From Nemertoderma westbladi (Eukaryota; Animalia; Xenacoelomorpha): a stretch of DNA of 51,289 nucleotides. This document shows positions 23,263 through 49,450 of the stretch, piece by piece. Numbering within the stretch: the stretch's first letter is position 1; the number at the start of each line of letters is the position of its first letter. Both the position numbers and the translations under genes were made by a program. The stretch spans positions 1 to 51,289 of the forward strand of contig JAUCBJ010000559.1 in assembly GCA_032718475.1 (NCBI GenBank). The letters run 5' to 3'. The notes below the pieces were generated by a model that was not told the DNA's origin, made no database searches, and saw only the letters and a program-made list of their open reading frames with translations.

Positions 23263-23445
23263 ATTTATTTATTTATTCCAGACATCAGTAAAATTAAATA
23301 CATAATACAGACGTCCATATAGCACAGTAAAACAATAAATTGTATTATTATAATTAAATCAACGTATGTAATGTATGGTAGGGTATAGGGTAGGCTTACT
23401 ATGTAAGCATCGAGTAAAAAAAATATATTGCATTGTATATAAAAT
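23263..23445 (-). mobile_element. 183-bp AT-rich insertion (probable retroposon 3' end) in the integrase C-terminus
   Basis: GTTTT on both sides (23258-23262, 23446-23450), (TTTA)n tail; removal restores ETNLKRRF-WLTGVI. Confidence 0.7.
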
Positions 23446-24501: not shown

Positions 24502-25020
24502 ATGAAATCAGCAACTAGGAAAACCCCAATATCTGAAATTATAGTAAAGTGATGTGTTTACTTATATTTTATCTGTGACACCGACAGTAAGTCAGAAAGA
24601 CAGACAAACAGACAGACAGACAGATAGACATACAGACAATCCAGATGTCATCAAACATTAAAACATGTATTAGAAATGAAATCAGCGACTAGGAAGACCC
24701 CCATACCTGACATTTTATTCAGGTGACATGCCTCCTTATATTTTGACTGACAGACAGATAGACATAAAAACAGACCAACAGACATTCTAGGTTTAGTCAA
24801 ATATTAAAATTGACATTGGAAATGGAATCAGCGACTAGGAAAACCCCCATATCATAAATTATAGTAAAGTGGTGTGCTTACTTATTTATTGTCTGTGAGA
24901 TTGACACTCAGACAGACAGAATGACAGACAAACAGACAGACAGGCAGTCCAGATGTCATCAAACATTAAATCAGATATCAGAAATGAATTTAGCGACTAC
25001 GAAAAACCCTAAATCGTAAA
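24480..25020. repeat. Four degenerate units of about 160 bp with (CAGA)n microsatellite cores
   Basis: AATGAAATCAGCGACTAGGAAAACCCC-like motif at about 24501, 24675, 24822 and 24983. Confidence 0.8.
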
Positions 25021-25609
25021 TTTTGGTTCGCTGGAGTAGTTTATAATATTTTGGCTTATTTTTGAAATTTACCGCGCTTTACATAAAATTAGCGGGAAGG
25101 TTTGAAAACTTAAAATGCGTTTTTCTCAGCATCTTATTTTTCGTCAAATTTAGAAAAAAATGTACCTTTTTCTCGAGAACAACGGCTTGATGGAATTGGC
25201 TGAAATTTTCGCAGCAGGTTTGTTGTAGTGAGACACAATTGTGGAACCTCTAAAAACATACAGTATGTTTAAAACAATTATCAAATGAATTTCTAATATA
25301 AACTTCGAAAATGTGTCATTTTTTGGTCAATTTTTTTTAGGTTCCAGGTGTGTCTCAATAGTTACTCCGCGATGCTGGAAATTTTTATAAAATTCCATCT
25401 TGTAGAACCAGCGTAATGGGTACATATGTGTTAATAGTAAAATGTATGTCTAATGTCTGTATGGGGTACCATCTCCCCTTAACGTTTCTAAATATATTGT
25501 TACAGGAGTCGGTACTGTTATTAATTGATTATAACCGTTCGATCTCAAGGTTTGCATATATTGAAATTAATGTTTATAATTTTTATTTAGATCAATATTT
25601 ATATGTCTC

Positions 25610-26266: not shown

Positions 26267-27491
26267 ACTACTACTACTACTAGGTCGAGCGAACTCGGAC
26301 AGTGGAAATTAGATCCTTCCAGGCTTCTCGATTCTCCATAGTTGTCGCAATTTCGTTTCTCCCAAGTTCAGTATCCCTTTCAAGTTGATCTATATATGTT
26401 ATGGCCGGTCGTCCACGACTACGCTTTCCATGAGTTGGTTGCCAGAAAAGTAGGTCTGGTATGACCTCGTCTTTACTTCGCCAGCAGTGCTCACTGAATC
26501 TTAATCTGCGTTCACGGAGGGTGGTTGATACAGGCGGTATTGTACCATAAAGCTCGGCGTTTGTCATGTGTTGTCTCCAGCTGATGTTTAGGGCTGCCCT
26601 TAGTAGTCTTGTGTAGCAACCATCAATTCGTTGTTCAAGTGATTTAGTCAGTGTCCAGGTCTCATCCCCGTATAAAAATACACTTTCCACTGTGGCTCGA
26701 AAGAACTTAGTCTTCAGGTGCCTGGAGAGATCTGATTTCCAGATGGTATCCATTTTTGATAGAGCTACCCAAGCCTTTGCTTTCCTAACTTCTATGTCCT
26801 TTTTGCTACTCTCTATCCATGATCCAAGGTACTGGAAGTCATCGACCTTCCTTAGTTGATTATTATCAATGGTTGTCAAGTTTCCATCAACATTAAAGGT
26901 CATGAATTCGGTCTTGGTAGCATTTATATGCAATCCAACCTCCTTAGCAGCCCTCTCCACTTTATTTAGTAGAAGCTGTGCATCTGCTAGCGTATTAGAG
27001 AGCAGGGCGATGTCATCCGCAAAGTCGGTGTCTGTGACTGTAGTTGCCGGATATCTACTACTTCTGCGTTCTTGAAGTGTGAATCCCAGATCTTCACCCT
27101 TTGTGGCTGTCCTCATTGCGTAATCCAGCACAATTACAAATAGTAATGGTGCTAATGTGTCACCTTGCAGTACGCCAGCCAGGATTGAGAAAAACTCAGT
27201 TTCACGATCTGGTGAGAGTACCTGCGCTTCTGTGTCACAATATAACAATCCAATGCCAGCAACAATTACTTCTGGTATTCCATAAGCTCTTAGGATTTCA
27301 AGCATTTTGCCTCTATGGATGGAGTCGAATGCCTTCTTGAAGTCCACAAAAGTCATGACTGCGGGGAGATTCTTTGACTTAATTCCTTCAATCAGTCTCC
27401 GTAGTGCAAGTATCTGAGCTATTGTTGATCTACTTGGTCGAAATCCGTTTTGGCTCTTACGCAGTAGTTTCTCTATGTGAGGCCCAATCCT
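26267..27491 (-). mobile_element. 5'-truncated RTE-clade LINE with an uninterrupted RT-to-C-terminus frame (about 400 codons) and (TAG)n tail
   Basis: QNGFR, FVDFKKAFDSI, GVLQGDTLAP, FADDIALL, YLGSWI, RGRP. The stop codon is the first unit of the (TAG)n tail. Confidence 0.95.
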
Positions 27492-28123
27492 ATATAGAAT
27501 ACAATGTGTGTGAATGCAGTGCAGTGCATGCAGTGCAGTGCATGAATACATGAATACAATGCAGTGAATACAATATAAATATCAGAGAAATCTGTCTGTG
27601 AAAGTCTTGTACCGCACTGGTAATGGTAAAGACCTTTACATACCTCACACAGAGAAAAGCTACATCTTTCTTTTGGAATCGATTAAAACAGAAATGGCAA
27701 GAAGAAGAAACTAGGAAAGGGACAGAGGAGATGGAATGGGGAATAATCATAGTAGAATAGGGGAAAACAAAAGAACAAAAATAATAACCAACTTACTAAA
27801 TACCATGACAGCACAAAGCTAGATAAGAAACCAAGCTAAGTTTCTGACTAAACAGGTAAACACAATTGCTATACTGTTGAGATACGAGTATAGGTACAAG
27901 GTACAGTATTTTTTTTTTTTCAATTCAATTTCTTTTAATTCGCTATCTGGGCGACAATAAAAATTATGCAATATGCACAACAACATAATGAAATAATGGT
28001 TAGTATAAGGATAGTACGACTCGTGAAAATAAATAAAATACATATTGTTTGTGTTACACACGCAGAATAAGCCATATATAGAATCTATATGAGTATGTTA
28101 TATTTTCTATATGAATACATATA

Positions 28124-28662
28124 TGTTAGCTTATTCAATCCCGCTAACACCCCATAAAGTTATGAGCCGATGAGCAATATTGGGAGCCACGAGATTGGGT
28201 AATTAACCAACTCGTGCCATCCCAATAAGAGTGGGAAGGAAGCACACAATAGAGGGTCAGGGGCCAAACCCCCTAACCCAGAGAGAACAGGTGGAGTGAA
28301 CGGGAACACTCCACGGGGCGCCAACAAGGGTATCAACCAATCAGAGGGGGGCAAGGCATCGATTAGGTAGTAATTAGGCCAACCGTGTAATATAATCAGT
28401 AACCTATTAATCAGTAATTCAGTTATCTCAGTGCAGTAGTGCTAGTATAGGTTAGTTAGTTTAGATAGGGGAGCACGGGACTTTAGTTACCGTATCCCGC
28501 CTTCCATATATTATACTATCATCAGATCATATCTATATCTTATACCAATTATATACAGCGAACATCAGAACTCATTTACCGTTTCCATTTACTCTTTACA
28601 CACGGCGGGGACGCGTAAGCTAAACACCGGATAAACCGGGATCCCTCCTGGATCCCGTCACA
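28124..28662 (+). repeat. 5' LTR of a second, diverged member of the gag-only LTR family
   Basis: TGTTAGC...CCCGTCACA, 539 bp, reverse-complement homolog of 660-1199. Confidence 0.93.
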
Positions 28663-28730
28663 GTAACTAAATCAGCTGCCGCCCTAGACAAACTCAATAG
28701 CCACTAGCCACCGAAATCTGCAGAAGAGAG

Positions 28731-29266: not shown

Positions 29267-31360
29267 ATGTCCCCCCACCCTCCCTACTGCTTTTTAAATA
29301 TGGAACGACATTTCCAGGTTTTATTTGTAAATTGCCGAACCCACCCCCCTCCCATCATATATATATTTTTAACTGTTTGATTTAACTATATTAATTAGAG
29401 ATATTCGCTATTTAATATATAGGAATTTATTGTCCCCCCACCCGCCCTACTGATTTATGAAATAATTAATAGGATTCGGGAGACTGTATTGTCGACGAAC
29501 TGAAGGCCAACCGTATTTAGGGACTGTAAACTATATGGAATGTCTCAACCCACGTTGCCATTAGTACAACTATTGAATGCAGACCATTACTCACTGTCAT
29601 CATGCAGTTGGTTACAGCAGACAGTTAGGTAATGAGAATACATAATTATAGAAAACAAATTGTATATTTATTCATAGAATATATATTTATAAAAGTACCG
29701 ACATAGTAAATGTTTTCATATATACAACGTAGTAATAAGTTACAATTTGTAGTGGAATAAGAGTCAATACTATGGGGTTTGATAAAGATTTTTAAGTTCT
29801 GTGTATCGTATGGTACACATATTGATTAGGGCGGCCTTCACTACCTAACGAATTGTTGACTCAAATTTTTCCATTACCAAATTGTAACTTATTACTCAAT
29901 TAAAATAAAATAAAGTAGATGTACTGAAATAGATAGAAAAAACAAGGAAATACGAAAATATAATTTGGAAATGAAATTGAGACATATTTTGTGAATGTTT
30001 GTTACACTTGATAACAGCTGATCACAAAATCACAAAGAACTGAATACTTATAAAATATGCAATTTTAGTTGAGATATAATTGTAAATATTCAGAAAGATT
30101 AATAAAAAAAGGGTAATAATATTTCTGAAATATTAATTGGACGCGCTCAATGAAATTTTGAACATCCCTTTTGTATAATTAATATATACTTCTAGTCTGG
30201 GCCGTTAATATTGAGAAAATTAAATTTTAATAATAATTTTCTAAAATGCAATACATGTACATTACGATCAATGTACAATATATCTTTGGATTCAATTTAT
30301 AATTTTTTTCATTTTAAGATTGTGTGAGAAATGTTCACACTTAGTGAACCACCAGTGCTGTAAAATAAGTCAGTAATCATAAAAGTATCACACATCATGA
30401 TTAAATATATGCATGGAAACTAAATTCGCATATGCAATTAACATTAACTTTGTTTAGGAGCACAAAAAACTGTAATATATTTAATTGATTAATTGGATGC
30501 CGTTTATTGTTTTGGTTACTGTGACTTCAATGATATTAGCTATCTTTCCTTTAACTTTTAGTAATGTATCCAATTACATGTTGGCGAAATTCAATACCAC
30601 GTTTAATACTTTTATGATTACTCAAAATTTGCGATTATAAAATATTATCCAATAGATAATATAAAAAAAGTTTCTAGATAAAATAGAAACTGTCTGACTG
30701 ATAATTACAGCCAATTTTCCTATATTATTGCACGAAAGTTGTGATCGCGCAAAATATTAATGAATACTCAAAGTGGATATATGAAATAAAGAAATTATGT
30801 ACAGTACAAATAATAAGAGTTACGCAATACGGCAGCCAATCATAACAATAATCCAGCCCTATAAAAAATAAATACCAGAATAATATTCTGAAATATCCCA
30901 CCTTTTGGAACAGAGAATAAATAGAAAGTGAAAGATATAAATTGTGAAAGAATTAATATCGTTACTATCTGATATTTCTTATAAAACTTATGAATAATAA
31001 TGCAGCTACCATGGCTACTGAGCTATGTATGGATGCTGATGGTGGTCAGCTGATTGTGGAATTGTCATCTTGTGCAAGAAGCAAGCGTGCCTGGTCAGGG
31101 TCTCTCTTCAACTGTATATTGTTGGTTATAGTTTAATCTCAGATGAAAAATATATAACTGTTGAAAATATACTAAAATAATATTAGGTCTAATTTGTTTA
31201 TAACAGAAAACTGCATAGACCCCAAAGACATATTGTGTTATATATACAGCATGACAAAAAATTAACCATAATTAAAATATATAGAGGACCTACCTACATT
31301 AGCCATGAATTTATCTCTCGCTACAAATGAAACCAGAATTTAACAGGTACTTTGGTAAGT

Positions 31361-31973
31361 CATTAGTGCAGCGTGACCCCGCGCCCGGGTAAGACATTAG
31401 TGCAGCATGGCCCCGTGCCCGGGTAAGACATTAGTGCAGCATGGCCCCGTGCCCGGGTAAGACATTAGTGCAGCGTGACCCCGCGCCCGGGTAAGACATT
31501 AGTGTATGACCCCGTGCCCGGGTAAGACATTAGTGCAGCATGGCCCCGTGCCCGGGTAAGACATTAGTGCAGCATGGCCCCGTGCCCGGGTAAGACATTA
31601 GTGCAGCATGGCACTGTGCCCGGGTAAGACATTAGTGCAGCATGGCACCGTGTCCGGGTAAGACATTAGTGCGCATGACCCCGTGCCCGGGTATGACATT
31701 AGTGCAGCGTGACCCCGCGCCCGGGTAAGACATTAGTGCAGCATGGCCCCGTGCCCGGGTAAGACATTAGTGCAGCATGGCCCCGTGCCCGGGTAAGACA
31801 TTAGTGCAGCATGGCCCCGTGCCCGGGTAAGACATTAGTGCAGCATGGCACTGTGCCCGGGTAAGACATTAGTGCAGCATGGCACCGTGTCCGGGTAAGA
31901 CATTAGTGCAGCATGACCCCGTGCCCTGGTAAGACATTAGTGCAGCGTAATCCCGCGCCCGGGTAAGACATTA
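31361..31973. repeat. 34-bp GC-rich minisatellite (CATTAGTGCAGCATGGCCCCGTGCCCGGGTAAGA), about 18 copies
   Basis: Head-to-tail units with a few recurrent variants. Confidence 0.97.
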
Positions 31974-33082
31974 TGGTGGTGGGTGCCCGCTTACAATACT
32001 GACATTTGCATAAAAATATAAAAGGCTCTGCTCTCCCTGAGAAAATCAGATGGTGCCTCTTATTGGAGGCAACTACATTCTCCTCTTAACTGGAAAAAAG
32101 AAGAGAGATTCAATGTAACAGAAGCAACAAGGGAGCTTATGTCTACCGGACGAATCCAGAAAGCTCTCCATTATGTACTTAAATAGACTGGTCGGGTGTT
32201 TCAAGGAAATGTGTAGTAAGTATCCCATATATGTACGCTGTACGGTACCCCACACGATTATAATCTTAAATATGGAACGATGTCTAACAATGTTAGAAGC
32301 AATATCCAACATTACTTTTGTTAAATTCTATATATATTTGGTTTACCAAGCCTGAAGAGAACCCAACGAGATGTTGCATTCTAGAACAAACTAATATTTA
32401 TATAAACTTGCTGGTAGGAGCACATAATGTTCTAGAACTCTTGATAATTATAATTTTCATATTAAATTGACGAGTGGAGTAAATAACGAAAATGGCGAAA
32501 ACATTATGCTCGCTCTTTAATTTATTTTCTCAGGAGAGATATAAAATAATGTTATATCTATAAATAAGCAATATCTATATTAAAACTTCCGAAACGTATT
32601 TTTTAGAGAAATATGGCCTCCGACCTCCCCTATAGCCATACCTTGCACCACCAAACGAACAATATGATATCAATTAGCCATTCAAAGTTTTTGATTTTTA
32701 TATTTTTGTGTCTATTTTTGTATATTTCCATTTGATCATAAATACATTTAATTGAAATTAATGGACAAAACCATTTTCGGTTGACAAAGTTATCACGAAA
32801 AAGTTTAAAAAATACCAAATGTTACAAAAGTTGGGACAAATACATTATAAAAATGTCATTATTATAATGAATTAATTTTATTAATTAATGGTAGCTTCAT
32901 GAATGTGTATATTTATAATGGTTTTCAAAGGTTTTGTGTATAAATTTATATGTATAATTTTTGCAGCTATTGTTGTCCTTTGCAAGACAGATAGTAATAG
33001 TCCATTACGAGATAGATGTAAGTCGTTGTCAATTACGCGATAGAAAATACTCGCGCTACATTACGACTTACGAAACAGATAA

Positions 33083-33628
33083 TAGTTGATGTACATGGTA
33101 TACTAGTTGATGTACATGGTATACTAGTTGATGTACATGGTATACTAGTTGATGTACATGGTATACTAGTTGATGTACATGGTATACTAGTTGATGTACA
33201 TGGTATACTAGTTGATGTACATGGTATACTAGTTGATGTACATGGTATACTAGTTGATGTACATGGTATACTAGTTGATGTACATGGTATACTAGTTGAT
33301 GTACATGGTATACTAGTTGATGTACATGGTATACTAGTTGATGTACATGGTATACTAGTTGATGTACATGGTATACTAGTTGATGTACATGGTATACTAG
33401 TTGATGTACATGGTATACTAGTTGATGTACATGGTATACTAGTTGATGTACATGGTATACTAGTTGATGTACATGGTATACTAGTTGATGTACATGGTAT
33501 ACTAGTTGATGTACATGGTATACTAGTTGATGTACATGGTATACTAGTTGATGTACATGGTATACTAGTTGATGTACATGGTATACTAGTTGATGTACAT
33601 GGTATACTAGTTGATGTACATGGTATAC
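33083..33628. repeat. 21-bp perfect minisatellite (TAGTTGATGTACATGGTATAC) x26
   Basis: 546 bp of identical units. Confidence 0.98.
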
Positions 33629-34749
33629 AACTATTCGAAGACTATCATATTTATAAATTTGTTTACTTTTCTGTAAACTTTTGAAACATTTGGTGTGAAT
33701 ATTTGAGTTTTTAGAGCAGAAAATGAATTGAAAATGGTTCCTAACTAACACTCATTTCCATGGGAGGAACACAATCATTATTCACGGACACCATATTATA
33801 TACTTTATATTCTTGACCCAGATGGGAATTAGATGGCCGGCCTTTAAAGTAATTTGACATGAAAAAAAAATAGAAAAAACTTATTTTTCTTCTAGAAACG
33901 TAAGACACAATTACAATATAAATATTCCCGGGTAGACCGTACCCTGAAGAATATAATATAATGTAAATCTGTCTGTACCGTATAGGCCTATACTTTTAGA
34001 TACAACACGTATACATTTAGACACATCCACCCGTCTAAGATGGATAATAATACATAGCAATATTATTTATTATTTGGCAACTTATGTACCGGTTGTTAAG
34101 GTTTAGATGCGATTTATGTATTAAAGGACGTCTGGAAACGCACAACCACAAGTGTAGTGTGAAAGAGGGATATTTAAATAGTCTGAAAACAACAATTTAT
34201 AAGTAATTGTCTTGTACCAAACTGAGAAAAGGGTTGCGGTATTTCTAACTTCATTATTTATTTTAAAAAAAGCTTAAACTTTCAAGCATGTTCAAAAACA
34301 TATTGAACAAAAATATAACATAAGTGTGGGATTCCAACATACTAAAAACACAATTCTATCCGTGGCAGAAAAGTAAATTTTCGCTTATTTGAGGACTGTG
34401 AGATAGACTTGAGACAATTAATAATTGTACTTGTGTTATTTATAAAAAGATAATTTATAGAACTGTTTGATCATCTGTTCGATTTTGAGTTATTAGTGAA
34501 TATAAAATTTATTTTTACCTTTCCAATACGCTATAACACTTGCCTTCATTTTAAGTGTTTGAAAAATGTAATTGAAGTTGTCATGTCCATCTAAAACCCA
34601 TTCACCAGTTAAGTCATTTTCTAGACGACAATGAAAGCACGCGAATTATTATACGAATTAAGTAAATTAACTGTCTAATAATTGCAACAAAGTTTCAAAA
34701 AGGTCTGTAATTCGTTTAGAAACAATCTGAAGTTTGGGCAAAAATTACT

Positions 34750-35105
34750 TTGACAGGCAGATCGCTCGCTGGACCTACATAAAAACCGACATACAGACAT
34801 AGTAGGTTGCCATCAAACATAAAAATGACGTCGGAAATGAAATGAGAATCCACGATAACCCCAATAAAAACGTTTTAGTTACGTGGGTTGCTTTCCATAT
34901 ATTTTGACAGACAGACAGACTGACAGATCATCGGACGGGTAGACAGCCTGACATAGAGACTTCGTTAAAAGTGAAAACTCACGTTAGGGATGAAGTCAGT
35001 GTCCATGAAAGACCCCATAACAAATTTGTTATAATATGACAGACAAACCGTCAGAAACACAATCCCAGACAAACAGTTTTCCTTTTCACAGACATTACAG
35101 AGACT
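34750..35105. repeat. Degenerate (CAGA)n-containing repeat related to 24480-25020
   Basis: CATCAAACAT.AAAA...GAAATGAAAT...ACCCC motif and ACAGAC runs. Confidence 0.6.
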
Positions 35106-35417
35106 TTAGTTGTTTGTTATCGATATTCATATACCACCGACTAAAACACGGTGCCTTTTTTTCAGTTGGGTAGGTGGTACAAGACAAATACTTGTAATAA
35201 ATTACAGTTTTCAGATATTTTTGAATATTACACTTTCAACCTATACGAGTAATTGTTTCATAAACATTTTATTGAAACAAATTAAGTAAAATATAATAAT
35301 AATAATTAATATTAAATAAATAAATAAATTAAATACATAAATTAATTAAAAATAAACATTTTTGGTTTCCGTGAATAAAATATTTAGGTTTTGGGAGAAA
35401 CATGCGAGAAATAAATC

Positions 35418-38400
35418 CTACCTCATACTTACCAGTGTCAGTTCGTCGTAGTGTTCGTCATGTAGAACATCCATAGCGGCCTGTACAATTTGGGCGGACG
35501 TTGCATTTGCGACTAACGCGTCCCGAATGCTTGTCCTCAAATTGCACCGCCGTAGGATGTTCTGTGGGTCACGACCCCCACCGGGAAATCCTGTAATGTA
35601 AAATGTCACGAACCACCTACCTAATGACCTACAGTAATGGTCTGAGACTCCCTCAGAATTGTGTCTGCGAAGCTGCTTTTTTAGATTAGCAGCCTCGCCT
35701 ATGAAATGGATGAGGAAATCTGTGGACTCAATACAGTAGACAAATCCCGTAGACGTGTTAGGGATCAGTCTACGATAAGGAGGGATGGGGTTATTGGCCG
35801 CAATGTTATATAAATTGTCGCGTGGGAGGGCAACATTTTGGAAATCCCTGCTGTCAATCATACGCGAAATAAATTTAGCATATATTGACGGCACATTGAG
35901 TAAGGAACGGATTGCTTTGATGTTGTCATCCAAGTTTCCAACAAACATTAGGTTATCCAGAGTACGGACCCTGGATACCAAAACTAAAAGTTGTTCTTTG
36001 AGCCATAGATTCCAAATGTCGTCAGGGTCATGCGTCCGTCCTTTTTTATTCAGTTTATGGCGTATTTGACATGCTACTTTCTCACATGTTTCTCCCAAAA
36101 CCCTGTGCAGAGTCATGGCTAGCACATAAAGTAGGGGCCACTGTTCGCGATGGGCCTTTTGTAGGTCCGACCCTACTTGAATATCAATAGACACATGTCG
36201 ACGTAAAGATATCAGTGGGAAGTGGCTGATATTGTTTACGTCGATATGTGTCTCTTGTGGCGGCGCTAGACGGACCATGACTCTCTGTTCCTCCCATGGA
36301 TCTGTGTCCACTGGTAGACCCTCAACTACCACCAATTGCCCCTGGGAAAATACGTGCCCCCCAACTGCCCCATTGTAAGTTAACCGCATGATCCCCCCCT
36401 TGTGTAAATAAATTTCCCGCCTGTCCATGACCTCCCTTTCCAGTGCCTGAGTTACCCTAGTTGAAGCTAGCCCCCAAGAATCCACCCCACACTGCATCTC
36501 GTCCCTAGCCAAAAATGAACCCCCCTCCAAGTTGACCCTAGCCTTCAGTTTGGTTAGGAAGGCCTCAGTGGCATGTTCCTCAGCTTTGTGCGTACCAACC
36601 AGGGAGGTGTAATCTTCTGGTACGTCTTCCCAGGAAGGAACAATGTTGCGCTCACACCGCGTTCGTATGATTTCAATAGCCGATTCAATCTCCACGTCGG
36701 TGAGGGAAGGGCGCCGGAGAAGCTCTAACAAGCGCCTCAGATCGGCGTCCCCCCCAGCACGGACGTATTGATTGAGTCGGGCTATCCTGAAGGTTGTCAG
36801 AAAGTGCGGTGACAGCCAGATGGGAAGTCCCGATACAGGTGGCAACTGTGCCGGATCGCCGCTGGCGATTAACAGAGTGCCACCGAACGGAACATCCACA
36901 TCCTTGACCTTTCGGAGGACGTGATCTAGTACGGCGAAATCTTCTGCACTAAACAGGCCGATTTCGTCGACTAGAATCACGTCCACACGCTGCAGGACTG
37001 CCAGCCGCACTTTGCTCTTAGCTAACCTCATTAGGCTTTGCTCGGCTAACGCACTTACCATCTTTTTGGTGGCTGTTCCTTGGCCACCAAGGCTAAGGAA
37101 TCGATGGTAATGCATTCCGCCGAGCACACGGGACCTCCGGGCAGTGAGTGAAATAAGGGCAACTTTTAAATTTCGAGCTAAGGCATGTGCGCCTGCTGTC
37201 AGGAGTACGTGAGTCTTCCCTGTTCCCGGGGCGCCTACAATAACCGGAGATTCCACAAATGTGGTTGTGGGATCTTTGATTTTGTCTATTGCTTGTTTAC
37301 AAAAATCTAAACAAGCTCGCTGTTCCAATACTGACTCTACATTTTGTAACGGACATTGGTTTATGACTGCTTCCCAGTCCTGTGGTAAAATGTTACCTGA
37401 AACTTGGCATAAGTTATCATCAGGGAGGTTAGAAACCCCCTGTTCCCTGAAACCCTTTATTAAGTTGGCGTGACGAGTAAACTCCTGATTCGCCAGATCA
37501 GTGGAAAGTGCAGCTTGGAACAGCGATTCCAGCACCAAAGGCATGTTTGTATATTTCAGACCGTCCCCAGCCAAAAAGGATTTTAATACAGAGTTGGAAG
37601 CCATTAACAGTTTTTCAAACTGTCTAGTACTGATAGGCTTATACTGGAGCTGCTGAGTGACGTAATCATGACGAATTTTGAGAGACTCAGCCTCCGTCAC
37701 ATTACGCCAATCAGCAACCAGCTTTGCCTTCTGAAAACATTCCAACAGATTGCCTACGGAATACAGGTCAATCTCGTTAGAAATATGTCCCATAGACATC
37801 AGGACATGGATGATAAATTTTTCGGTCTGCATTGGTGTTACATTGGAATAGACAATCACAACAGGCTTTGTAGACGCCAAATCAACATAACGACTTACGT
37901 ACTCTGGTTGATTTTGAATTATAGGTCCAAAGACCGCCGCTAAAAGTTCCCCAGCCAATGGCTCCCCCCTTCCCGCAATTTCAGTTAAAAAGCTAACAGC
38001 AGTTGCAATACCAGAAGCTCGAACTTTAACAAGATGCCCTATTCCATCCACCCACCGTGACTCACCGAGTTCGCTTGGGAATGACCACTCCCCTTGGAAA
38101 GATTCTGTGATAAAACATTTGTGGTACATTCCCAATTGGTTGAATACTCGCAGTTCTGGAGGACGCAGGTTGAATTTGGTCAAAGAGTCGGCGTAATAGG
38201 GACTGAGGATGTAGTCGTCGATGAGCATAACCTGAGACTCGGTGAACTGCCGTTCTTGAGGGAGATCGACACGTGTGCTCACCGGTCTCAGGGTCTGCCC
38301 ATCTTCTTGGATTTCGATGAGTTTGCGCTTCTTATTGCCGGGGTTACGGTTATGGAATCCGGGTCTGTACCCTGGGGCTAGAGTCGATACGTGTTTAAAT

Positions 38401-41400
38401 TCGACGTTGGTGTTACAGTATTCTAGCCCCAGGGCGTGCCAAATTACCTCGTATTGGGAGAAGTTTCGTGACGTGTATACCTGTTCCCTCTTCCCTTTTT
38501 CTTGAGATGCCATCTGTGCGCCGGAAATTTTTTCATGGACAAGGGGTAGCACATCAACAGTAACCTTGCCTTTTTCTGCTACTGACTCATTGAAAAGGAC
38601 CTTGGCCCTTTCCTCTTTGCCAGCAGCATATTTAATCAGATAGCTAACCATGAAACGCCTATCACATACTTGTACGTTAGTACAAGAACGTGTAAAAGTA
38701 AATAGGCGTGGGATGGTGGGGACAAAAAACTCATCACTACAGGCCGGGTAGTGATATTTTCCAGCCCGGAAATCTTGGTGCAATAAACGTTCCCCTTCAC
38801 CATCCATTGTTGTCAGTCCAAGAGACTCCATGATATCCATGGTTTCGTTTGAAAAAATGTTTTTGCGTTCAATGAACACTGCTTCGGAACGTTCTAGGTA
38901 CCGAGTGTACCGACAAAAAGTGTCACCATTAGCACGAACTTTCTGGCAACGGGCCTTACCTTTATGGCAGCTATGAGTCTGTAAAAATTGTAACCTATTT
39001 AAAAAAGTTCCGAAGTCACCCCAGTCCTTAACTAACCCATCCCTATGTAAAGTTTCAAAATCTGATTCAAATTCTTCCTCAAATAAACTCCTCGACTGAC
39101 AACAAATGCGACTCAGCGTCTTGGCCTTGTCTTCCTTATGTAGAGTGATACCACAATGAATGTGTGGTTTGTTTCCCAAAGCGTTTTGACCCTGAAATTC
39201 AAACCGCCACCAGATGAACCTAACAGGACCGCAAGGTTGCTGTGGGCTGTGTTCAATCCATTTCATTAAAAAGTTGGCCGACCGGTGCCACGCCCGGGCC
39301 AAAATAACTGCGTGGGCTTCGATTAATTCTTGTAAACTTTGAACTGCGCCTATTTGTGCTGCAGTTCTAAGCACAGCCCGATATAGAGGTGCTACCCCAT
39401 GTGTCTCAGAGTCGTTGCAGGTCGCCGTTAAAAAATAATCCCAATTTTGTTCTCCAATCAAGGCTGACAGTTCATTTACTTTCCTTCTGCTGTCCAGTTC
39501 ATCGAATTTTATTTTACTTTCTTCCCCACACGAAGTAAAAACATTTTGATTATCAGTTAAAAATTCCGGCCCCCGTTTGAATACCATTGTCGACGAATTG
39601 TGATTTAATTGGGTATTAATTTTTGCATCGAATAGAAAAGTTTGAAAGCATTTATTCTGGGCAGTAGGAAGGTCCATATCCCTGAGCCTGATTAGATTAT
39701 GATCCTGCAACGGGGCATAACCTCTAGGAGCGTTATCCCGATCAGAAAATAAAATTGATGGCAGAGCTCCCGTCGCTGACTTGGCATAGTCGCAGTGCCA
39801 AAAGATCCGCGGATACAATATGGCTTCAGGATATAACAACGGCACAGACCCTTCACCACTCAACGAGGTAATGTGGTACATGATTTTGTTGAAGGTGTTA
39901 TGGGAGTACTGAGAGACCCGGCGGCGGAGGAGACCCCACCCCTCATTAAGGAGAACATGTAGGCGGGTTGATTGGCTTGTGTCGTATAGAGGAACCCGGT
40001 CACCCCTGGAGTACAAAGTGTCGCTGTCCTCGGGTTCCTCTATATCCAGATCGTCGTACGTTCCCAGCACAATACGGTCGTCAACTGCGGTGGTCTCTAT
40101 GGCAACATCTTCTTCATACTCCGAGTCAGAGTCTAGGAAGGCCGCCAGGTCCTCAGGGAGTTGGGGTGCGGGGAGGGGTGCAGAGCCAGGGGATTGGGGT
40201 ACAGGGAGGGGTGCAGAGTCAGGGGATTGGGGTACAGGGAGGGGTGCTGGATCCTCCAGAACTGGAGATCTGGTCCTACCCAAACCAGATCGTACTCCTT
40301 GTAATCGGGAATCCACCACTAATGTTTTATCACTTTTCCTTAAAAGTGGAGCGCCATGCCATTGACAAACTGCGGTGGCACAGTGGACCCCGAAATCCTG
40401 TAAGCCAAATGGGCAGCGCCAGCGGGATGTTCTGGTACAACCATCATAGGAACACGGTACGGGCTCAACATCTGTTCCCTTGACCAAAAGATTACCTGGG
40501 TGATCCGCACAAAACATTTTGGATTGGCCAGCGTGGTGAACCAACTGACTGCTAAGGTCAACACCTACCGCCCCCCTTTTAACCAAAACAATAAACGAAA
40601 ACCTTTTATAAATAATATTATCCCTAACCTGTACGTCTGTTCCCACCCTATCCCCATTGACATTCCAGAACTGCAACCTATCCCCCCATCTAAAAATGAT
40701 CCCTTCCCTACTCCCCATCATCTGAACGTAGTATTCCCCATCATCAAAGTTGAGCCCCCCAGTGAATAAGCGCCCCCCTTCCCTTGTAAAGATGTCTATG
40801 TCCCCCCCGGTTGGTATATTAATATTAGCCCTACGAGAAATTCCCTGAAAAAGAGTCAGAATCGATGTGGCCTTCTGGAACACCCCGTCTGTCGTCGGTA
40901 CATTCAGTTCCGTCAGTTTGTCCTGTATGAATTTGTCTGTCGAATGTGTAAGTTTGTGTCTAACCCCCGTTTTAAGATCCCCCGTCACCTCTGTCAGTAA
41001 AGTCTTGGCTGTCGGATTCCTATCTACTAGTGTCTGTAAAGTTCGGTGTGTCAGTGGGGAATGACAAAGTATCCTAACTAAAGTCCCTAAAACAGTTATG
41101 TCAGTATTTAGCTCAGTAAACGGCGTCATTCCAAAGTCGTCATTAGGATGCGCCAATGGCAAACTGTAGTTGTGGTACTGGTCCCACCCCCTGTCCCGTG
41201 TCGTGTAATTTTGCCATTGGAACAGAGCCTCGTCACATGGTACAGTCGTCGCCCCCCGTATACAGTCCTGTACGTCCTCTGTATTATACCGTGGTGTCCG
41301 TGGCAACGTCATTTGCTCCACAAATTCCGGACCCAGAAAGGCGCGGTTGGAAACGGACTGGGCAATATCGGATCTGTTCTCTAGAACAAGAGTCTCCGAT

Positions 41401-43423
41401 TTGCCCAGCCGCTCGTCAACCACGTGGCAATCTGGGTCCGAAATTAAGGAGCAAGTGGAGATGCCGAAGTACCCCCCTACCCCCTTAACTACGTCGTTAC
41501 TAGCCGTCATGTTCCCCGCTCTACCCTCCCGTACTAGCTGTGGTACTACTGTCACTGGTGCCAGTCGTTCTAAGTTTTGTAAGCTGTTGTCATTCCCCGG
41601 GTGTCTTGGTGCATGTATGTATGTCCGTGTAGCGTCGGTGTGGTGTTCACAGAAGGCCACACAGAGTCCCTCATTTTCAGTGATCACTAAGGAAGGTTGG
41701 ACAGTCCAATCTAAATGGGAACTGTCCCGGGGCCAGTCCGGTCGAACACCTCGAGACATGTACGGTTTGGGATTGAATTCCTTATATCCTGGGATAAATT
41801 TATGGATGAAATTGTTAAATGGTTGCAAATTGCAGCGTTCGATAAACTCATGGCAACCGAGAGGACATTTCACAACCGGATATGGAAATGAATCCAACGC
41901 ATTGGCCATCGCACCATCCTGTAATGTACCCACCTCCCTTATAAACCACTCCCTTATTAATGTTATGTCCCTAAAAATTGCCCTATCACCCAAATGTTCC
42001 CGCACCTCATTTGAAAACTGATCCCTGACCCCCCACCAAGATTCCCTTAAACTGTCCGGTATAATTTTGTAAATTCCCCCATCCCTAGACTTTTTTAACA
42101 AATCCCACAGGTACGATGGCCAAGCGTTTTGCCATTTCGGTTTACTACCCCCTAAACCTACACTAATGTACCGCCTGCATTCCCTACAAACTGTAAATGG
42201 TCCCCTTCCGTTCCCCAGTTCCCCATACTTCCTATTTACACGTTCCCCATTATATACCCCCAATGCAACCACCATCCCAGAAACACTAGCCCTCATACAA
42301 TTACTACACCTATCTACTACCTCACTACTAGCCCCAACCGATCCTACAACCCTCACCCCTTCTACAACTTCTACCCTACCATTTTCCCGTTCTACCCAAA
42401 TACATTCCAACCTAATATTGTCCCCTACATATGGTTCGTACCCCCTAAGTGTTTTATTTCCTAGTTTTTCTACTAAACTACTTTCCCTACCTACATAATA
42501 ACTGTGTCCGATACTATCCCTACCTACATCACTCGGCCCCCCTACACTACTCGGTCCCCCTACACTACTCGGCCCCCCTACACTACTCGGCCTCCCTACA
42601 CTACTCGGTCCCCCTACACTACTTGGCCCCCCTAAACTACTCGGCCTCCCTACACTACTCGGTCCCCCTACACTACTCGGCCCCCCTACACTACTCGGTC
42701 CCCCTACACTACTCGGCCCCCATACACTACTCGGCCCCCCTACACTACTCGGTCCCCCTACACTACTCGGCCCCCCTACACTACTCGGTCCCCCTACACT
42801 ACTCGGCCCCCCTACACTACTTGGCCCCCCTACACTACTTGGCCCCCCTACACTACTTGGCCCCCCTACACTACTTGGCCCCCCTACACTACTTGGCCTA
42901 CCTACATTACCCACCCCACGATTCATTTCCATATCCGGTTGGGCGTAGAAATGCCCTCTCGGTTGCTGGAAATGGGGAACCAATGCAGTATAGTGGCCCG
43001 GAACGAAACCCAGATGAATAACCACCCCCGCTGCCCCGATGATAATGTCGTTCCCCATTTGCCCATCCCACGTATGAATATTGAAACTGTAACCCAATGA
43101 ATATGAAAGGGCACACAATATTGCATGGGTTCCCCATTCCCTTCCGTGACGTAGGTCCTCTATATATCTTGGGTATGTCTTCCCCCCCATCTCCAAAAAT
43201 CCCCGATACTCTGGGTTATCGTTGAAAAAATTGGCGGCCGTATTACGCAACTCACCCACATTGTACAAGTGTCCAGTTCCTAAGTACACGGCGGTGACTA
43301 TTGAGGCAAACATGCAGTCCCCGTCGTCACCGCCGCATTCTAGTTGAATAAGTCCCAATTGGGCAGCAGCCCGGCCAATAGTCCGCCCGGTGTTTGTGAA
43401 GTTAACCACCATCGGATTCGGAG
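35418..43423 (-). CDS. Giant Helitron-like Rep-helicase: OTU protease, Cys/His-rich regions, HUH/Y2 Rep, Pif1 (SF1B) helicase and GIY-YIG-like domain (terminal exon; ATG at 43412, 2664 aa)
   Basis: OTU DGDCMF...WG...GHY; Rep motifs YFLTATC, EFQGQNALGNKPHIH, YLIKY; helicase GAPGTGKT, LVDEIG, FGG...GDPAQLPPV, QWPL...MTLH, VSRV; GFVYCI...FIGEAANLKKQLRRHNS. No stop in 8 kb. Confidence 0.93.
42530..42905 (-). repeat. 18-bp coding minisatellite (GGPSSV, about 20 copies) after the OTU domain
   Basis: In-frame tandem units. Confidence 0.95.
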
Positions 43424-43734
43424 CTGAAAAATATAAATAGATAATATCAGAAAAAGTTACAGAAACAGAATCTTACACTATGGAAGTTGATGTTATATTT
43501 CTATTTCAAAGTAATACATTCGATAATAATAATTATAATCTAATACAATTATTAATAAAAAACAAATATAAAATTATATCAAAAAATAATACAGTAACCC
43601 TTGTTAACTAATTCAAAATAGAATGCTGGATGGTAACTAACTACGTAAATAGCTCAGAATAAACGTTGATCAGTAAGCAGTGCAAAATTAGTTGCTCAAC
43701 AGCAAGAAACATGTAAACTATAACAAAAACATAT

Positions 43735-43872
43735 AGACAGGCAGATCAACAAACAAACAAACAAACAAACAAACAACAAAACAAACAAACAAACAAACAA
43801 ACAGACAGGCAGGCAGACATACAAACAAAACAGACAGACAGACACACAGACTGACAGACAGGCAGACAGACA
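43735..43872. repeat. (CAAA)n/(CAGA)n microsatellite in the predicted last intron
   Basis: Direct inspection. Confidence 0.9.
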
Positions 43873-44968
43873 ATTAATTCATAATTTAACTGATAATTAA
43901 TATTAGAATTAACATTGCTAAGCTTTCATTGATTGAACAGATATATTATGCCAACGAAGTAACACAATACTATGTTGCAGGAAACGAACCAAGAGGAAAC
44001 TACCAAGCAAACAACTCGCAGTCAGTGGGTAAAAACATGTATAAATAATATCATCAGTGTTTATTTAATCTGTGGAACAACTTTGACTCGTAATAACTCC
44101 AGTAATTCTGCCCGTCCCCTTTTACAGTTTCATTAATATAAACTTACGGAAATTAATTTAATTCATTAGAAACTTAAACGCGCTCTATTGAACAGATCAA
44201 GCCGAGTCTGTGATACAATTAGATAATAAATAACAATCTGTATCATAATAGACAAGCGCGGATCAAATATTAAGTGCCAATAGCGAATTCGCTGACTATG
44301 ACTCCACCATTAATTAAATAAATAATAATTAATTTGATAAGATATAATCCCCCCGTCATTCAATTCCACAATCATTTTATATCTCAATTTAAATATATCA
44401 ATGGAAAATGAGTTACGAGTATCAAAGTTGATTCACAAATAACAACAACAGCAACATATTTACATTGGGATTATAAACCCAATCAACAGTAAATATATAA
44501 AGATACTTATATTCTGTTTGTAAACTAATGAGAATGATGATGAATGTGGAGAAATAAATGAATCTGTAATGTAAATAATAAATTAATAGAAAAGTTAATG
44601 AGATAATGGAGGTGTTAATGAAGATGTCGTTACAATAAGTGGTGGACCGGGAGTCTATAATATTATGAGTTAAAGTGCGCCGGTGAGTCAAAGATTCTGC
44701 CAATTTGCCAAAAAGGGTGACACAAAAATTATGTCCAATAGTCACAATGTACGGCCTTTGACAAACATTCTGACACTTGATCACTTTGATACACAAAGAC
44801 ACCCAAAAACAGTGTGATACATAAATTTATCTCTCATGTGAAACGCAAATATTGCTAATATATTATAATTTATATTTTTTAACCGTTTTGATAATAAATT
44901 CCTGAAGAGCTGAAAAATAAATATTAAAAATTAAAACAACAAAATATTAATGATTTTAATAAACTCAC

Positions 44969-45289
44969 TAGTTTCCATAGCGGGTCCCACTGTAGGAGTT
45001 GTCCCAAGCGATTGGGACACATCCGGGACACAGTGGGACCCCGGTGGTGGAGAACTTGGGGAGGCGATGGAGTAGGACCCCGGTGGTGGAGCGCTTGGGG
45101 AGGCGATGGAGTAGGACCCCGGTGGTGGAGCGCTTGGGGAGGCGATGGAGTAGGACCCCGGTGGTGGAGCGCTTGGGGAGGCGATGGAGTAGGACCCCGG
45201 TGGTGGAGCGCTTGGGGAGGCGATGGAGTAGGACCCCGGTGGTGGAGCGCTTGGGGAGGCGATGGAGGTGCCAGCTGAACCGAGTGAGG
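44969..45289 (-). CDS. Predicted exon 3 (Ser/Pro-rich; 42-bp repeat IASPSAPPPGSYS-like, about 6 copies)
   Basis: CAG acceptor at 45290-45292, GTGAGT donor after 44969, 321 bp, phase 1-1. Confidence 0.6.
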
Positions 45290-45396
45290 CTGAGGAGTCA
45301 GAGTCAAAAACAAACAAATATAATATTAATATAACCATAAAAAATAACCCAAACAAAAAGTTATTTACGTGCTATTAAAAAAATATATTTATTTAA

Positions 45397-45670
45397 AAGT
45401 AGGGTAAGGTTTCCTTCGACCGTTAGGTCAGGGAATAAACACAAAGTATGACGACTCATTTCCAGTACGGTCCCCCTAGAATTATACTCCCCAGAGGAAA
45501 CTGTGACTCATTTAGCTATCATTTTAGTATGCAAGTCAGATATGCACCCTGGCTAGTCCTTTGAAAGCGTTCGTGGCGAAACGGAAACGCATTTGCCCCC
45601 CCATCCAGGGATCGAACCCACGACCTCGGGGAGATGTGAATTCAAACGGATTTAACCATTTGTCAGTTCA
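45397..45670 (-). mobile_element. Probable tRNA-derived SINE in a predicted intron
   Basis: Box B GGTTCGATCC (45609-45618, minus strand) in a T-arm-like stem, eroded box A, T-rich end. Confidence 0.55.
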
Positions 45671-46107
45671 ATAAAATTGTATTATTACTAGGCGAATTAA
45701 AGTCGAATGCACAGGCGAAGGCATCGATATTTTACTTGAGAGGAATTCATTTTAATTGTATCAAAAATCCTCCACCCCTACATTAATAGAGTTGTTCGTG
45801 TAATATCGGAGATAATAATTAAATGTACGGGGGTAATATATTTCAAAACGCGCGACAGTTTCTCATTAGTTACATAGTCATTTGTTGTTCAACTAAAGTC
45901 ACAAGTTGTGCAGCAAACTGGTCCTCAATGTTAAAAATAGAAGTGAAAGAACAAAAGTTACGTACGATATTAATAAAAATTATAATATTAAAAATTACTG
46001 ACATAAATAAATAATAGACGTAGAATATTGTAGAACATATAAATACTGGAAATATAGGTTTAGCTAATCTGCGGTAATTTAAATATTATTGATTAAGTTA
46101 AACTCAC

Positions 46108-46257
46108 CGGAATCCACAGGGGGCCCCACTGGAGAAGGTGTCCCAATCGATTGGGACAAGTCCATCCCACAGTGGGACCCAGTTGGTGTAGTTGGGGACG
46201 GTGACCCAGTTGGTGAAGTTGGGGACCAAGATATGGAGCTGTCTGACGTGTCCGGGT
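46108..46257 (-). CDS. Predicted exon 2 (Ser/Pro/Thr-rich, 50 codons)
   Basis: TTTGTTTCAG acceptor, G|GTGAGT donor, 150 bp, phase 1-1, GC-rich against AT-rich flanks. Confidence 0.72.
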
Positions 46258-46687
46258 CTGAAACAAACAAACAAACGGGTAATATAAATATAAAAATAGA
46301 ACCCAAACAATTAAGTTATATCCACATTATACAATTAAATAGTTATATATAATTTAGTAACAAGCAAACAGCGAAAAAACTAAAACAAAATTTGAAATGT
46401 TGTTCTAAAATATGTTTTGGTCTTTCTGTAGAGTTCATATTGTGGGTAAAATACCGCTTTTTCATAACATTATATTAATGTAATATATTTCAGATATAAT
46501 GATAGAACAATTATTTATTATACAAAATAAATATATAGAAACATGACGTTCAATAAAGTAATAATACATTGTATTTATCTAATAACAACCTCCAAAATTC
46601 TCCTACCACAAATAATTAAGATACTGGTACTTAATTTACTTGAATATTGATAAACTATAAATACACATAAAATAAAAATAAACTCAC

Positions 46688-48002
46688 CACTTGTATGGGC
46701 GTCGCCCACGGCCGAGCGTAAACGTTTCGCGCGCCGCTGCCGTCGGAGGTAGAGAGGCTCCCCGGCGGAGCGACGGCGTGAGGTAGAAGGAGAGGAGGAG
46801 AACGAAAGCTGAGAGAGTTGGAAGGTGGGTGAAGGAGTAGCCGAGTCGTAGATGGTAGGTGAGGTAGCAGTGGGTGTAGTATGGGTCTTCCTAGGGCGGG
46901 TGGTGGTGGTAGCGGTTGGGGTAGTAGGGCGAGGCGTCTTCTTAGGGCGGGTGGTGGTGGTGGGGGTCTTTGGGGAGCGGGAAGTAGGTGGAGAAGTCGA
47001 TGGGCGAGGAGCGATTGGAGAGAAGCGGGAACCGGGAGAAACATTAACTGCGGTTGGGGAGAAAGGAGAAGCGGGGGGAGATAGTTGAGAACGGGGACGA
47101 CGTCGAGAAACAGTAACGAATGGTGAGGGCGGTGGGGTGGTCATCATCGGGGAAACTGGTGGAGTATAATCGGGTGACATAGGGGTGAGGGAGGATTGCG
47201 GGGAGAGAAATCGACGTCGTGGTGATGGTTGGGGAGACGATATGAAACGGGGGGCAGGTTGGGGAGAGGAGATGAAACGGGGGGCAGGTTGGGGAGAGGA
47301 GATGAAACGGGGGGCAGGTTGGGGAGAGGAGATGAAACGGGGGGCAGGTTGGGGAGAGGTGATGAAACTTTGACGCGGGGTAGGTTGGGGAGGGGAGACA
47401 AAACGTTGACGAGGAGCTGGTTGGGGAGATGAGATGAAACTTTGACGCGGGGTAGGTTGGGGAGGGGAGACAAAACGTTGACGAGGAGCTGGTTGGGGAT
47501 GGGATATAAAACGGCGACGAGGGGTAGGTATAGGGACAACAAACTGTGGATGTACTGGTTGAGGAGCAATGTTGCGGAGGGGTCTAACTGTAGGAGGATT
47601 AAAGTGTTGGCGGGGAGCGATGAGACGGTGGTGGAGGGCAGATTGGGAGATTGGCGGAGTACAGACGAGTTGAATACCAAAAGGGGTTAAAAGCGCAGCA
47701 GCAGAGGGCGGTAGAGGAGCGGTGGTGGGTGGAGTTGAGCAAACGGGAGGTCGGTTGGTGATTAGAGGGGCAGTGGCAATGGTAGTGGTAGGTCGTACCG
47801 GTACCGGTAGTCGCACGACCTCGGCAAACGTCCGAGATCGTACCGGTACCGGCACTAGAAGAGGAGTAGTAGCGGTAGGTGGGGCAGGAGGTGGCTGAAG
47901 AGGACTATCCTCAGGTATGTTCCTGAGGGGACAGGTTGGCCTCCGATGGTTTGGCGGACCAACCTTCCCCCCACAACGGCCACAACGTATTTTCTTGACC
48001 AT
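46688..48002 (-). CDS. Predicted exon 1: N-terminal zinc knuckle plus Pro/Ser/Thr/Arg-rich disordered region
   Basis: ATG at 48002 (MVKKIRCGRCGGKVGPPNHRRPTC), RFISSPQPAP repeats, G|GTGAGT donor after 46688, 1315 bp (phase 1). Confidence 0.72.
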
Positions 48003-49174
48003 GATCTGACTGTCTGATAATCGCAGTAATGCAAATAATCGAAAATAATAAGCCAAATAACAAAACAAGTGTAAATGTAATCTGTAAATTATGTTAATCT
48101 GTAAATGAAATATTTACTGTATTTGAGGCCGAATAATATGTCGGTACGCGGTAGGCCTACGGTCAGACTATCAGATGGTAGTGTGAGTGTGCAGAAGACT
48201 GAGAGTAGGGTATACCGGACCGGTCTGCCGGCAGCCGGTACGCCTAGCTAAACAGTTTTTAAATTGACTGCAAAAAGCTGAAAATCCGAACTGGTAAACC
48301 TGTAAACAAAAAGCAGGGGGAACCTTCAGACATATAGACATAGGGCCTAGGTCTAAGTCTAGACATGTTGAGTGGAAAAAAAGGCCAATACCGGCACCCG
48401 GCTCATCTACCTGTCTACAATCTCTGAATATCTATGATTTAGTCTGCCCGAGCCCGTATGCCGTAGGCGTACCGGTAGATTTGTAGAAGGCTCATCTATT
48501 ATTATTTACGAACATGTCACATGTAGCATACCGGTAGCCTACCCGGTGAGCCTAGTCCTTTTCTTGCAGATATGACGAAAAAGTAACCTACCACTAGCGG
48601 CGGCAGTGTGCAGTGACGAAGTGTTGCAGACGGGGCGGGACCGGCGACCGGGCGACCAACAATACTGAATACGGTAGGCTTCAAAACTCGATAGGCCTAC
48701 TGGCCTAGGGCTGTAGGGTAGACTGTTTCTTGCTAACTGCAAAATAATTGGTACCGGTAACCCAAGCAGCCTCGTTTGCCCTGCTGTCTAAGGCAACTGT
48801 GACTCTGGAGTGTGCAGTGTGGTACTTGTACTGCAGTACTAATACCGGTAGGCTCCTACTCAAACAGAGTGGTGGACGCTGAACGTACATGCGCGCAATG
48901 TAAAGACTGAAATACTGAATGAAGGTTCCGTTGGCCGGAAGTAACAGACATCTTGAAACGTCATTAACGTCATTCCACTGCCCATTGGTTGTTTGATCTT
49001 AAGGTATTATATTATAGGGATTTCCCTAATGAAATAACCCTAAATATTTATCCCATTTCAAAATTAGGACAGCTCTATTATTCTAATTAATTCTATTGTA
49101 CCATTCTCATGTGGGATGATATATTATTGGAAAGCAATACAGTAAAACATATTGGCCTATTAAGGTTGCTTCAA

Positions 49175-49450
49175 GCAGGGTAACCTCAAGATGTTTGCAT
49201 CTCGTTTTCAAGGGGGTCCTTCAAATATCAGCTTGTAACATTTGGTAACTTTACATAGAACATATATTAAGGTTGGTTAATGATAACCTCCAAGATAATG
49301 CATCTCGTTTTCATCGCGGTCCTCAAATCAGCAGCTTGTAACATTGAATGGTAATATGAACATAAAACAGATATTTTGTTATTTTGGTTCAGGGTAACCT
49401 AAATATATTGCATCTCGTTTTCAAGGGGGTCCTCAAAACATCAGCTTTTA
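49175..49450. repeat. Three degenerate direct repeats of about 105 bp
   Basis: TAACCT...GCATCTCGTTTTCA...GGTCCT...CAGCTT x3. Confidence 0.75.

Follow-up and report, generated by a model that had tools for sequence, protein, structure and literature searches.

On the minus strand of contig JAUCBJ010000559.1 of Nemertoderma westbladi (assembly GCA_032718475.1) lies a large gene for a transposase. The contig was analysed over its whole stretch of 51,289 nucleotides (nt), referred to as the window, and all positions are those of this stretch. The protein is a Helitron-like HUH/Pif1 transposase from a divergent clade, which has its own form of Rep motif 2 and a carboxy-terminal tail resembling SLX1. 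Taken as a whole, it is probable that the locus contains an intact, spliced transposase gene, with a leader exon and four coding exons specifying 3263 amino acids.

Exons and predicted splicing

The original prediction had joined four exons (48002–46688, 46257–46108, 45289–44969 and 43423–35418, minus strand). Their lengths were reproduced exactly (1315 + 150 + 321 + 8006 = 9792 nt), as was the frame of 3263 amino acids, with a single terminal stop and no internal ones. Coding exon 1 (46688–48002), whose start is likely to be at 48299, encodes a basic amino-terminus, a knuckle-like motif and a proline/serine/threonine-rich linker containing repeats of 30, 36 and 72 nt. It is followed by intron 1 (46258–46687, 430 nt), exon 2 (46108–46257, 150 nt) and intron 2 (45290–46107, 818 nt). 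Exon 3 (44969–45289, 321 nt) is made up in part of six 39-nt repeats and is a duplicate of exon 2. After intron 3 (43424–44968, 1545 nt), which contains a (CAAA/CAGA)n tract, exon 4 (35418–43423, 8006 nt) contains the 2664-residue open reading frame (ORF) P0001; its acceptor is located 11 nt before the ATG at 43412, as claimed previously. All three introns are phase 1 and begin with GTGAGT and end with CAG. Exons 2 and 3 are both symmetric (phase 1-1), so in-frame skipping is possible and would lead to proteins of 3213, 3156 or 3106 residues. A second strong acceptor (44901–44909, minus strand) is present 59 nt past the exon 3 donor and resembles that of exon 4; if it were used, translation would terminate within a few codons.

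On the minus strand between 43424 and 48002, GTGAGT occurs three times, at exactly the three donors. The steps in GC content at the donors are pronounced, with exons 1 to 4 at 0.58, 0.59, 0.66 and 0.48 and the introns at 0.22, 0.34 and 0.29. When the 47 GTRAGT sites of the window, both strands included, are ordered by the drop in GC content, the three donors come first to third (0.52, 0.42 and 0.37, with the next at 0.17), and acceptors 46257 and 43423 rank first and second for the rise (0.35; next 0.12) among 74 pyrimidine-rich YAG sites. Acceptor 45289 is weaker: it fails the pyrimidine filter and ranks 22nd of 211 when the region 43300–49200 is scored with simple splice-site weights. The absence of stops that had been put forward in favour of the join is real, but is informative for exon 1 only, because exons 2 and 3 are free of stops in all three frames; exon 1 contains 0, 5 and 7 stops per frame and is open in just one. 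The chance that the exons are compatible in frame by accident is estimated at about 1 in 9 to 1 in 27. The periods of the tandem repeats within the proposed exons (30, 36, 72, 39, 18 and 33 nt) are all divisible by three; repeats of the introns and of the upstream flank have periods of 4, 29 and 103 nt.

Upstream of the coding exons, a promoter-like cluster is located at 48880–48990 (minus strand), with CCAAT at 48988, TGACGT at 48972 and 48963, ACTTCCGG at 48941, TCAGT at 48922 and 48910 and GCGCATG at 48894; the cluster presumably acts as a promoter. In the entire window, GCGCATG occurs twice, TGACGT 15 times and the ETS-like motif 11 times. Between the cluster and exon 1, an intron of 292 nt is predicted in the 5' untranslated region (48300–48591, GTAGGT ... 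TTTGTTTACAG). Its acceptor (48299) scores best of 211 and its donor (48592) third-best of 348 in 43300–49200. It contains all eight ATGs of the leader, the 595 nt that flank it on each side being free of them (post hoc p of about 1e-4), and a fifth, non-coding leader exon is likely to be present. At the other end, an AATAAA that may serve as poly(A) signal is found at 35268–35273, about 145 nt past the stop. The span of at least 12.6 kb proposed earlier is probably an underestimate, the distance from promoter-like cluster to poly(A) signal being about 13.7 kb.

The upstream exons might instead belong to a separate transcript, with the transposase made from the unspliced 2664-residue ORF starting at ATG 43412. 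That ORF has its own ATG 32 residues before the OTU cysteine and contains every catalytic domain, many relatives are single ORFs of 2200–2800 residues, each intron contains an AATAAA (46519, 45393 and 44065), and the acceptor at 44909 would terminate the spliced frame. On the other hand, few sites in the window are as strong as donor 44968 and acceptor 43423, which preserve the frame when joined, relatives have the knuckle in the same polypeptide, and no CCAAT, TGACGT, ETS-like or GCGCATG motif is present in 43400–44000. We regard a separate transcript as quite unlikely. The spliced transposase is supported as a prediction by the splice-site statistics, by relatives with the order knuckle, linker and OTU, and by the upstream promoter-like cluster and leader intron; splicing from four coding exons is, on these grounds, predicted with high probability.

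Domains of the predicted protein

The predicted order of domains is knuckle-like motif, Pro/Ser/Thr-rich linker, OTU, Cys module A, USP-like fold, Cys module B, Rep, Pif1 and GIY-YIG. All Pfam domain matches are in exon 4, and Pfam found no domain in exon 1. The HUH Rep nuclease (38628–39437, minus strand, as for all features of the gene) contains motif 1, a clade-type motif 2 with both histidines and a YxxKY motif with both tyrosines. The Pfam Helitron_like_N match in exon 4 is weak (E 1e-4). When a Rep profile was used, motifs 1–3 aligned with residues 513–531, 585–615 and 699–748 of Helraiser, with the conserved His and Tyr pairs falling on H593/H595 and Y727/Y731, residues needed for transposition of that element (PMC4778049). 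The predicted Rep model, with a predicted local distance difference test (pLDDT) score of 69, superposes on Helraiser (PDB entry 7LCC) with a Z-score of 12.6 and a root-mean-square deviation (r.m.s.d.) of 5.7 for 254 aligned residues, the next row having 4.9. The Pif1-like superfamily 1 helicase (35937–37244; Pfam PIF1, E 3.3e-11) has intact Walker A and B motifs and the Ser-Arg of motif VI; Walker A, the Walker B Glu and this Ser-Arg are present in 39 of 39 sequences.

At the amino-terminus, residues 7–24 (47931–47984) form the pattern C-x2-C-x8-H-x4-C. An amino-terminal zinc knuckle had been announced for this region; a knuckle-like Cys/His motif is indeed there, but its spacing is not the canonical C-x2-C-x4-H-x4-C. 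Zinc binding by it is plausible. The linker between this motif and the OTU domain is of low complexity, with 52% Pro, Ser and Thr, and a basic cluster at residues 420–429 (46716–46745) may be a nuclear localisation signal. The start of the unspliced ORF contains neither basic residues nor Cys.

The OTU cysteine protease domain (42975–43370) has its Cys and His motifs (Pfam E 2e-5, above the cut-off) and aligns to the OTU domain of a relative from Styela clava with an E of 9e-8. It is followed by a Gly/Pro/Ser linker encoded by 21.6 in-frame copies of an 18-nt tandem repeat (42523–42910). Two family-conserved Cys/His-rich modules, both likely to bind zinc, flank the USP-like fold. Module A (41598–42311) has Cys/His columns conserved across 39 sequences and a pLDDT that is mostly above 85, while the six Cys residues of module B (40356–40529) are invariant in 39 of 39. 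Neither module is assigned a fold by the fold searches, which barely covered them. The USP-like fold (40572–41132, ORF residues 761–947) was found in a predicted model of ORF residues 360–1050 with a pLDDT of 82. In VIA-align the top 36 rows for this region were all USPs or pseudo-USPs, the best being USP18 (Z-score 9.9, r.m.s.d. 3.7, 176 aligned residues), and Foldseek agreed weakly (best E 0.013). The domain is likely inactive, because no invariant Cys or His is present in the two alignment blocks viewed. This hidden USP-like fold is a new observation of the present analysis. A search of the ESM Atlas with P0001 residues 355–771 gave no usable match.

The protein ends in a degenerate SLX1-like GIY-YIG domain (35523–35747), predicted to be nuclease-dead, with the residues Y-F-Q-H-R where the family has Y-Y-R-H-E. 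In GIY-YIG nucleases, the key catalytic residues besides the Glu are two Tyr, an Arg and a His. The tail profile of the family matches the SLX1 nuclease domain with an E of 1.5e-14; the domain of this copy has a weak Pfam GIY-YIG match (E 0.007) and, searched on its own, no match in the PDB. Glu79 of SLX1 is a metal ligand and its E79Q mutant is inactive (PMC6902002). The equivalent column is Glu in 33 of 38 relatives and Arg in this copy, which also departs from the family at the second Tyr (Phe) and at the conserved Arg (Gln). Of 39 aligned sequences, 30 have all five key columns intact and nine are degenerate; the tail of the hagfish member reads Y-F-Q-H-E. In a FastTree tree of clade members only, the degenerate tails are scattered over one half, with five changes, four of them forced by starred branches. 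As the tree has long branches and was rooted at its midpoint without outgroups, only this scatter is read from it. Four features go beyond the original prediction: a likely leader intron, the duplication that links exons 2 and 3, the degeneracy of the GIY-YIG tail and the predicted USP-like fold.

The clade and its relation to known Helitrons

A phmmer search with ORF residues 572–1771 yielded 721 representatives (sequences clustered at 50%) at E of 0.001 or lower, 176 of them at 1e-30. The best 150 of the 721 have 26–43% identity, and many are 2200–3600 residues long. Named members among the 30 clusters examined are from the hagfish Myxine glutinosa and the tunicate Styela clava. Six copies of one member, P0053, are 98.9–99.6% identical, on contigs ranging in length from 120 kb to 1.4 Mb, which suggests that the clade is mobile. 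A word-based protein search recovered 20 clade members, and none was recovered when the whole ORF was the query of that kind. Scans of viral contigs detected no relative and no reference Helitron. A single 20-residue metagenome match (L001) was judged spurious. The clade was not found described as a group in the literature searched, which did not extend to subscription journals and Repbase reports, and the parts of PMC6431247, PMC3627910 and PMC9977147 drawn on describe no group combining Rep-helicase (RepHel) and GIY-YIG. The standard Rep profile gives the clade weak scores, so that Helitron annotation in its current form may overlook it. Transposases with introns and accessory domains are unsurprising in themselves; it is the clade of 721 representatives that matters.

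Some relatives have an amino-terminal region organised like that of the spliced protein. Styela clava XP_039257388.1 has a basic start, a CCHC knuckle (residues 11–24), a linker, OTU and module A; in P0020 (3596 residues), OTU and module A are preceded by three knuckles and then a long linker rich in Ser and Pro. Strict CCHC knuckles occur six times in the 8,215 residues upstream of module A and not once in 125,757 residues downstream, as counted in 61 non-redundant relatives; upstream of module A, four of these 61 have a knuckle and nine an OTU motif. CxxC/H is found in the first 45 residues of 13 of the 38 relatives with at least 40 residues before module A. Many relatives are probably single-ORF calls on contigs and would miss upstream exons. 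The splice model offers a likely full-length architecture, which ORF-only gene calls cut short.

Among 65 long non-redundant relatives, OTU is present in nine, amino-terminal in seven and carboxy-terminal in two. It was detected in four of five carriers of the knuckle pattern and in five of the 60 others, a comparison that ignores kinship and uses a profile built from these same OTU domains. A Ulp1 protease (E 9e-16) forms the end of P0166; in this protein and in P0190, P0211 (with OTU twice) and P0032, the OTU or Ulp1 domain is at the carboxy-terminus, past the helicase/nuclease region. Fusion of OTU/Ulp1 proteases at either end in relatives is likewise a new observation of the present analysis. 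Together with the USP-like fold, these repeated fusions make it testable why rolling-circle transposases have ubiquitin proteases, while natural pairs of intact and degenerate SLX1-like tails allow the need for the tail nuclease to be tested.

Two groups of Helitron-like elements, HLE1 and HLE2, are told apart by diagnostics in Rep motif 2 (PMC4067079). In HELIANO, OTU is found in both and UCH (USP) in HLE2 subgroups c and d, and DUF6570 serves to mark HLE2; the same work reports GIY-YIG in one family from a moss and leaves at least four clusters unclassified (PMC11417382). Like Helentrons (HLE2), the protein has a Rep and Pif1 core, OTU upstream of RepHel and an endonuclease fused at the carboxy-terminus (PMC4067079, PMC11417382); an aromatic-x-Arg precedes ExQ in its motif 2, the HLE2 diagnostic at this place being F/Y-x-R. 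In 105 motif-2 rows from 151 proteins, this Arg is present in all 105, F/Y/W-x-R in 102 and strict F/Y-x-R in 28, this copy having W-x-R. The HLE2 motif RGSPHxH, however, is absent from all 105 rows, as is RG[SL]P in general, the HLE1 motif ExQxRGLPHxH is not matched either, and GNx[PSAFN] is found in 83. Different from Helentrons are also the tail nuclease, which is an SLX1-like GIY-YIG rather than an AP endonuclease, the position of OTU in the same polypeptide, and the two Cys modules and USP-like fold preceding Rep. No Exo_endo_phos domain was detected in the window protein or in the 39 different relatives scanned, nor did DUF6570 give a Pfam match in them at E 0.1, 0.01 or 0.05, although a remote homologue is possible.

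With Helraiser, an HLE1 element (PDB entry 7LCC; PMC4778049), the protein shares the Rep fold, the catalytic His and Tyr pairs and the Walker A Lys, and a candidate nuclear signal and zinc-finger-like motif lie before RepHel at the amino-terminus in a similar way. At 3263 versus 1496 residues it is about twice as long, with 16% identity over the aligned Rep, a different motif 2 and additional OTU, USP-like and GIY-YIG modules; no TC...CTRR hairpin ends were identified in 29300–35420. HelenSM92, an HLE2 family of Sphagnum magellanicum (PMC11417382, Supplementary Figure S8), also combines RepHel and GIY-YIG but is reported as a single-family capture in moss; it was compared by description only and may or may not belong to the clade. 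It is the only GIY-YIG-bearing family found in the literature searched, which for HELIANO covered one supplementary file that may not hold all tables. With SLX1 (PDB entries 4XLG and 7CQ2; PMC6902002), the similarity is in the family tail profile and the Glu79 column, and the difference in the degenerate residues of this copy. Judged from its sequence, the element is one that would work like a Helitron but has neither the HLE1 nor the Helentron motifs, nor the Helentron nuclease. We tentatively raise the possibility, to which we give considerably less than even weight, of a third deep Helitron-like lineage outside HLE1 and HLE2. Such a lineage would be set apart by a motif 2 of its own, by a resolvase tail resembling SLX1, and by a built-in pseudo-USP that, with repeatedly captured OTU/Ulp1 proteases, would shield the covalent intermediate from the ubiquitin/SUMO system by which the host removes crosslinks.

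Proposed mechanism, its weight and the neighbouring elements

Transcription would start from a promoter near 48900, and splicing of the leader exon and four coding exons would give the 3263-residue protein. The basic, knuckle-bearing amino-terminus may aid nuclear import and nucleic-acid binding, while the HUH nuclease and Pif1 helicase would nick, unwind and copy the element itself. By analogy to Helraiser (PMC4778049), a Tyr would nick the left end and stay covalently bound, the helicase would displace one strand, and the second Tyr would close a circle that is then integrated. The SLX1-like tail may cut branched intermediates in most relatives, and in this copy would at most bind DNA. Hosts have a pathway in which ubiquitin or SUMO triggers the removal of covalent protein-DNA intermediates. 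Purely as a hypothesis, OTU might strip or mask ubiquitin marks on the covalent transposase-DNA intermediate, aided by the USP fold, which is likely inactive and might serve to bind ubiquitin; in this way the intermediate might be spared from removal as a protein-DNA crosslink by the host. For the OTU of Helentrons, chromatin signalling or polyprotein cleavage was suggested instead (PMC4067079).

Several observations weigh against the proposed gene and its function. The similarity between the duplicate exons 2 and 3 takes in the donor and the tract upstream (77% over 121 nt and 77% over 77 nt), so their splice sites are not independent evidence. The two exons differ at 11, 2 and 6 sites in codon positions 1, 2 and 3, and since most of these differences change the amino acid, no clear purifying selection is apparent. 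The knuckle of the window protein was missed by Pfam and was not in the top 12 rows when a profile of the knuckles of six relatives was used. A knuckle precedes module A in just four of the 61 relatives and is followed by OTU in just two; OTU itself is not detectable in most relatives. The role in ubiquitin shielding is hypothetical. No convincing candidate for the element ends, which would bear on the mobility of this copy, was found in 29300–35420 using the one copy, either of the HLE1 kind, with 5' TC, 3' CTRR and a subterminal hairpin at an A/T target, or of the HLE2 kind, with subterminal inverted repeats and terminal hairpins at a TT target. Only hairpins and inverted repeats of 11–15 nt are present there; as element ends these were rejected, being at chance level by estimate. 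Finally, a BLASTP comparison of exons 1–3 with relatives of at least 1700 residues gave no match.

This missing match could be explained if exons 1–3 were captured host exons, spliced on secondarily and not part of the ancestral transposase, and Helitrons do capture host gene fragments (PMC4778049, PMC6431247). Yet a basic amino-terminus combined with a small Cys motif is found repeatedly in the clade, low-complexity linkers would not be expected to align when the core identity is about 30%, and a local duplication of exon 2 accounts for exon 3; capture is very unlikely. Somewhat more weight, while still improbable, can be given to a domesticated, immobile host gene that derives from such a transposase and is spliced as modelled. 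The introns and housekeeping-like promoter cluster would fit such a gene, as would the degenerate GIY-YIG domain, the lack of a second copy in the window and the lack of a terminal hairpin or subterminal repeat pair beyond chance. Degenerate tails are not peculiar to this locus, as nine of the 39 aligned members have them, which counts against domestication; in addition, Rep retains its two His and two Tyr, the helicase retains its motifs, relatives occur in near-identical multi-copy sets and the neighbourhood is rich in other mobile elements. The intact, spliced transposase gene is the explanation that we favour.

Past the poly(A) signal, beginning about 20 nt from it, a pair of 72-nt imperfect inverted repeats (76%) at 34152–35246 brackets about 1.1 kb containing (GTCT)n. 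The interior resembles 146-nt repeats at 24480–25024 (66–71%), and the unit looks like an insertion of a non-autonomous miniature inverted-repeat transposable element or of one similar to the Helentron-associated interspersed elements (HINE-like). Two minisatellites are also located 3' of the gene, one at 33079–33628 (21 nt, 26 copies, 99% matches) and one at 31354–31973 (34 nt, 18 copies). Rfam gave no match in 30000–51289. A non-LTR-type reverse transcriptase fragment (RVT_1, DUF6451) is present at 26280–27581 on the minus strand, and a broken BEL/Pao-like long terminal repeat (LTR) retrotransposon at 15000–23600 on the plus strand, with a canonical CCHC knuckle at 17790, Peptidase_A17, an integrase zinc domain and DUF5641. 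At 7624–14198, units of about 3.97 kb are duplicated in tandem at 98–100% identity, each with a perfect inverted repeat whose two 45-nt arms are about 705 nt apart. Further away, at 650–7290, LTR-like direct repeats that are identical over at least 300 nt and 6220 nt apart surround minus-strand ORFs with a weak zinc knuckle, and an inverted piece related to these repeats is found at 28243–28671.

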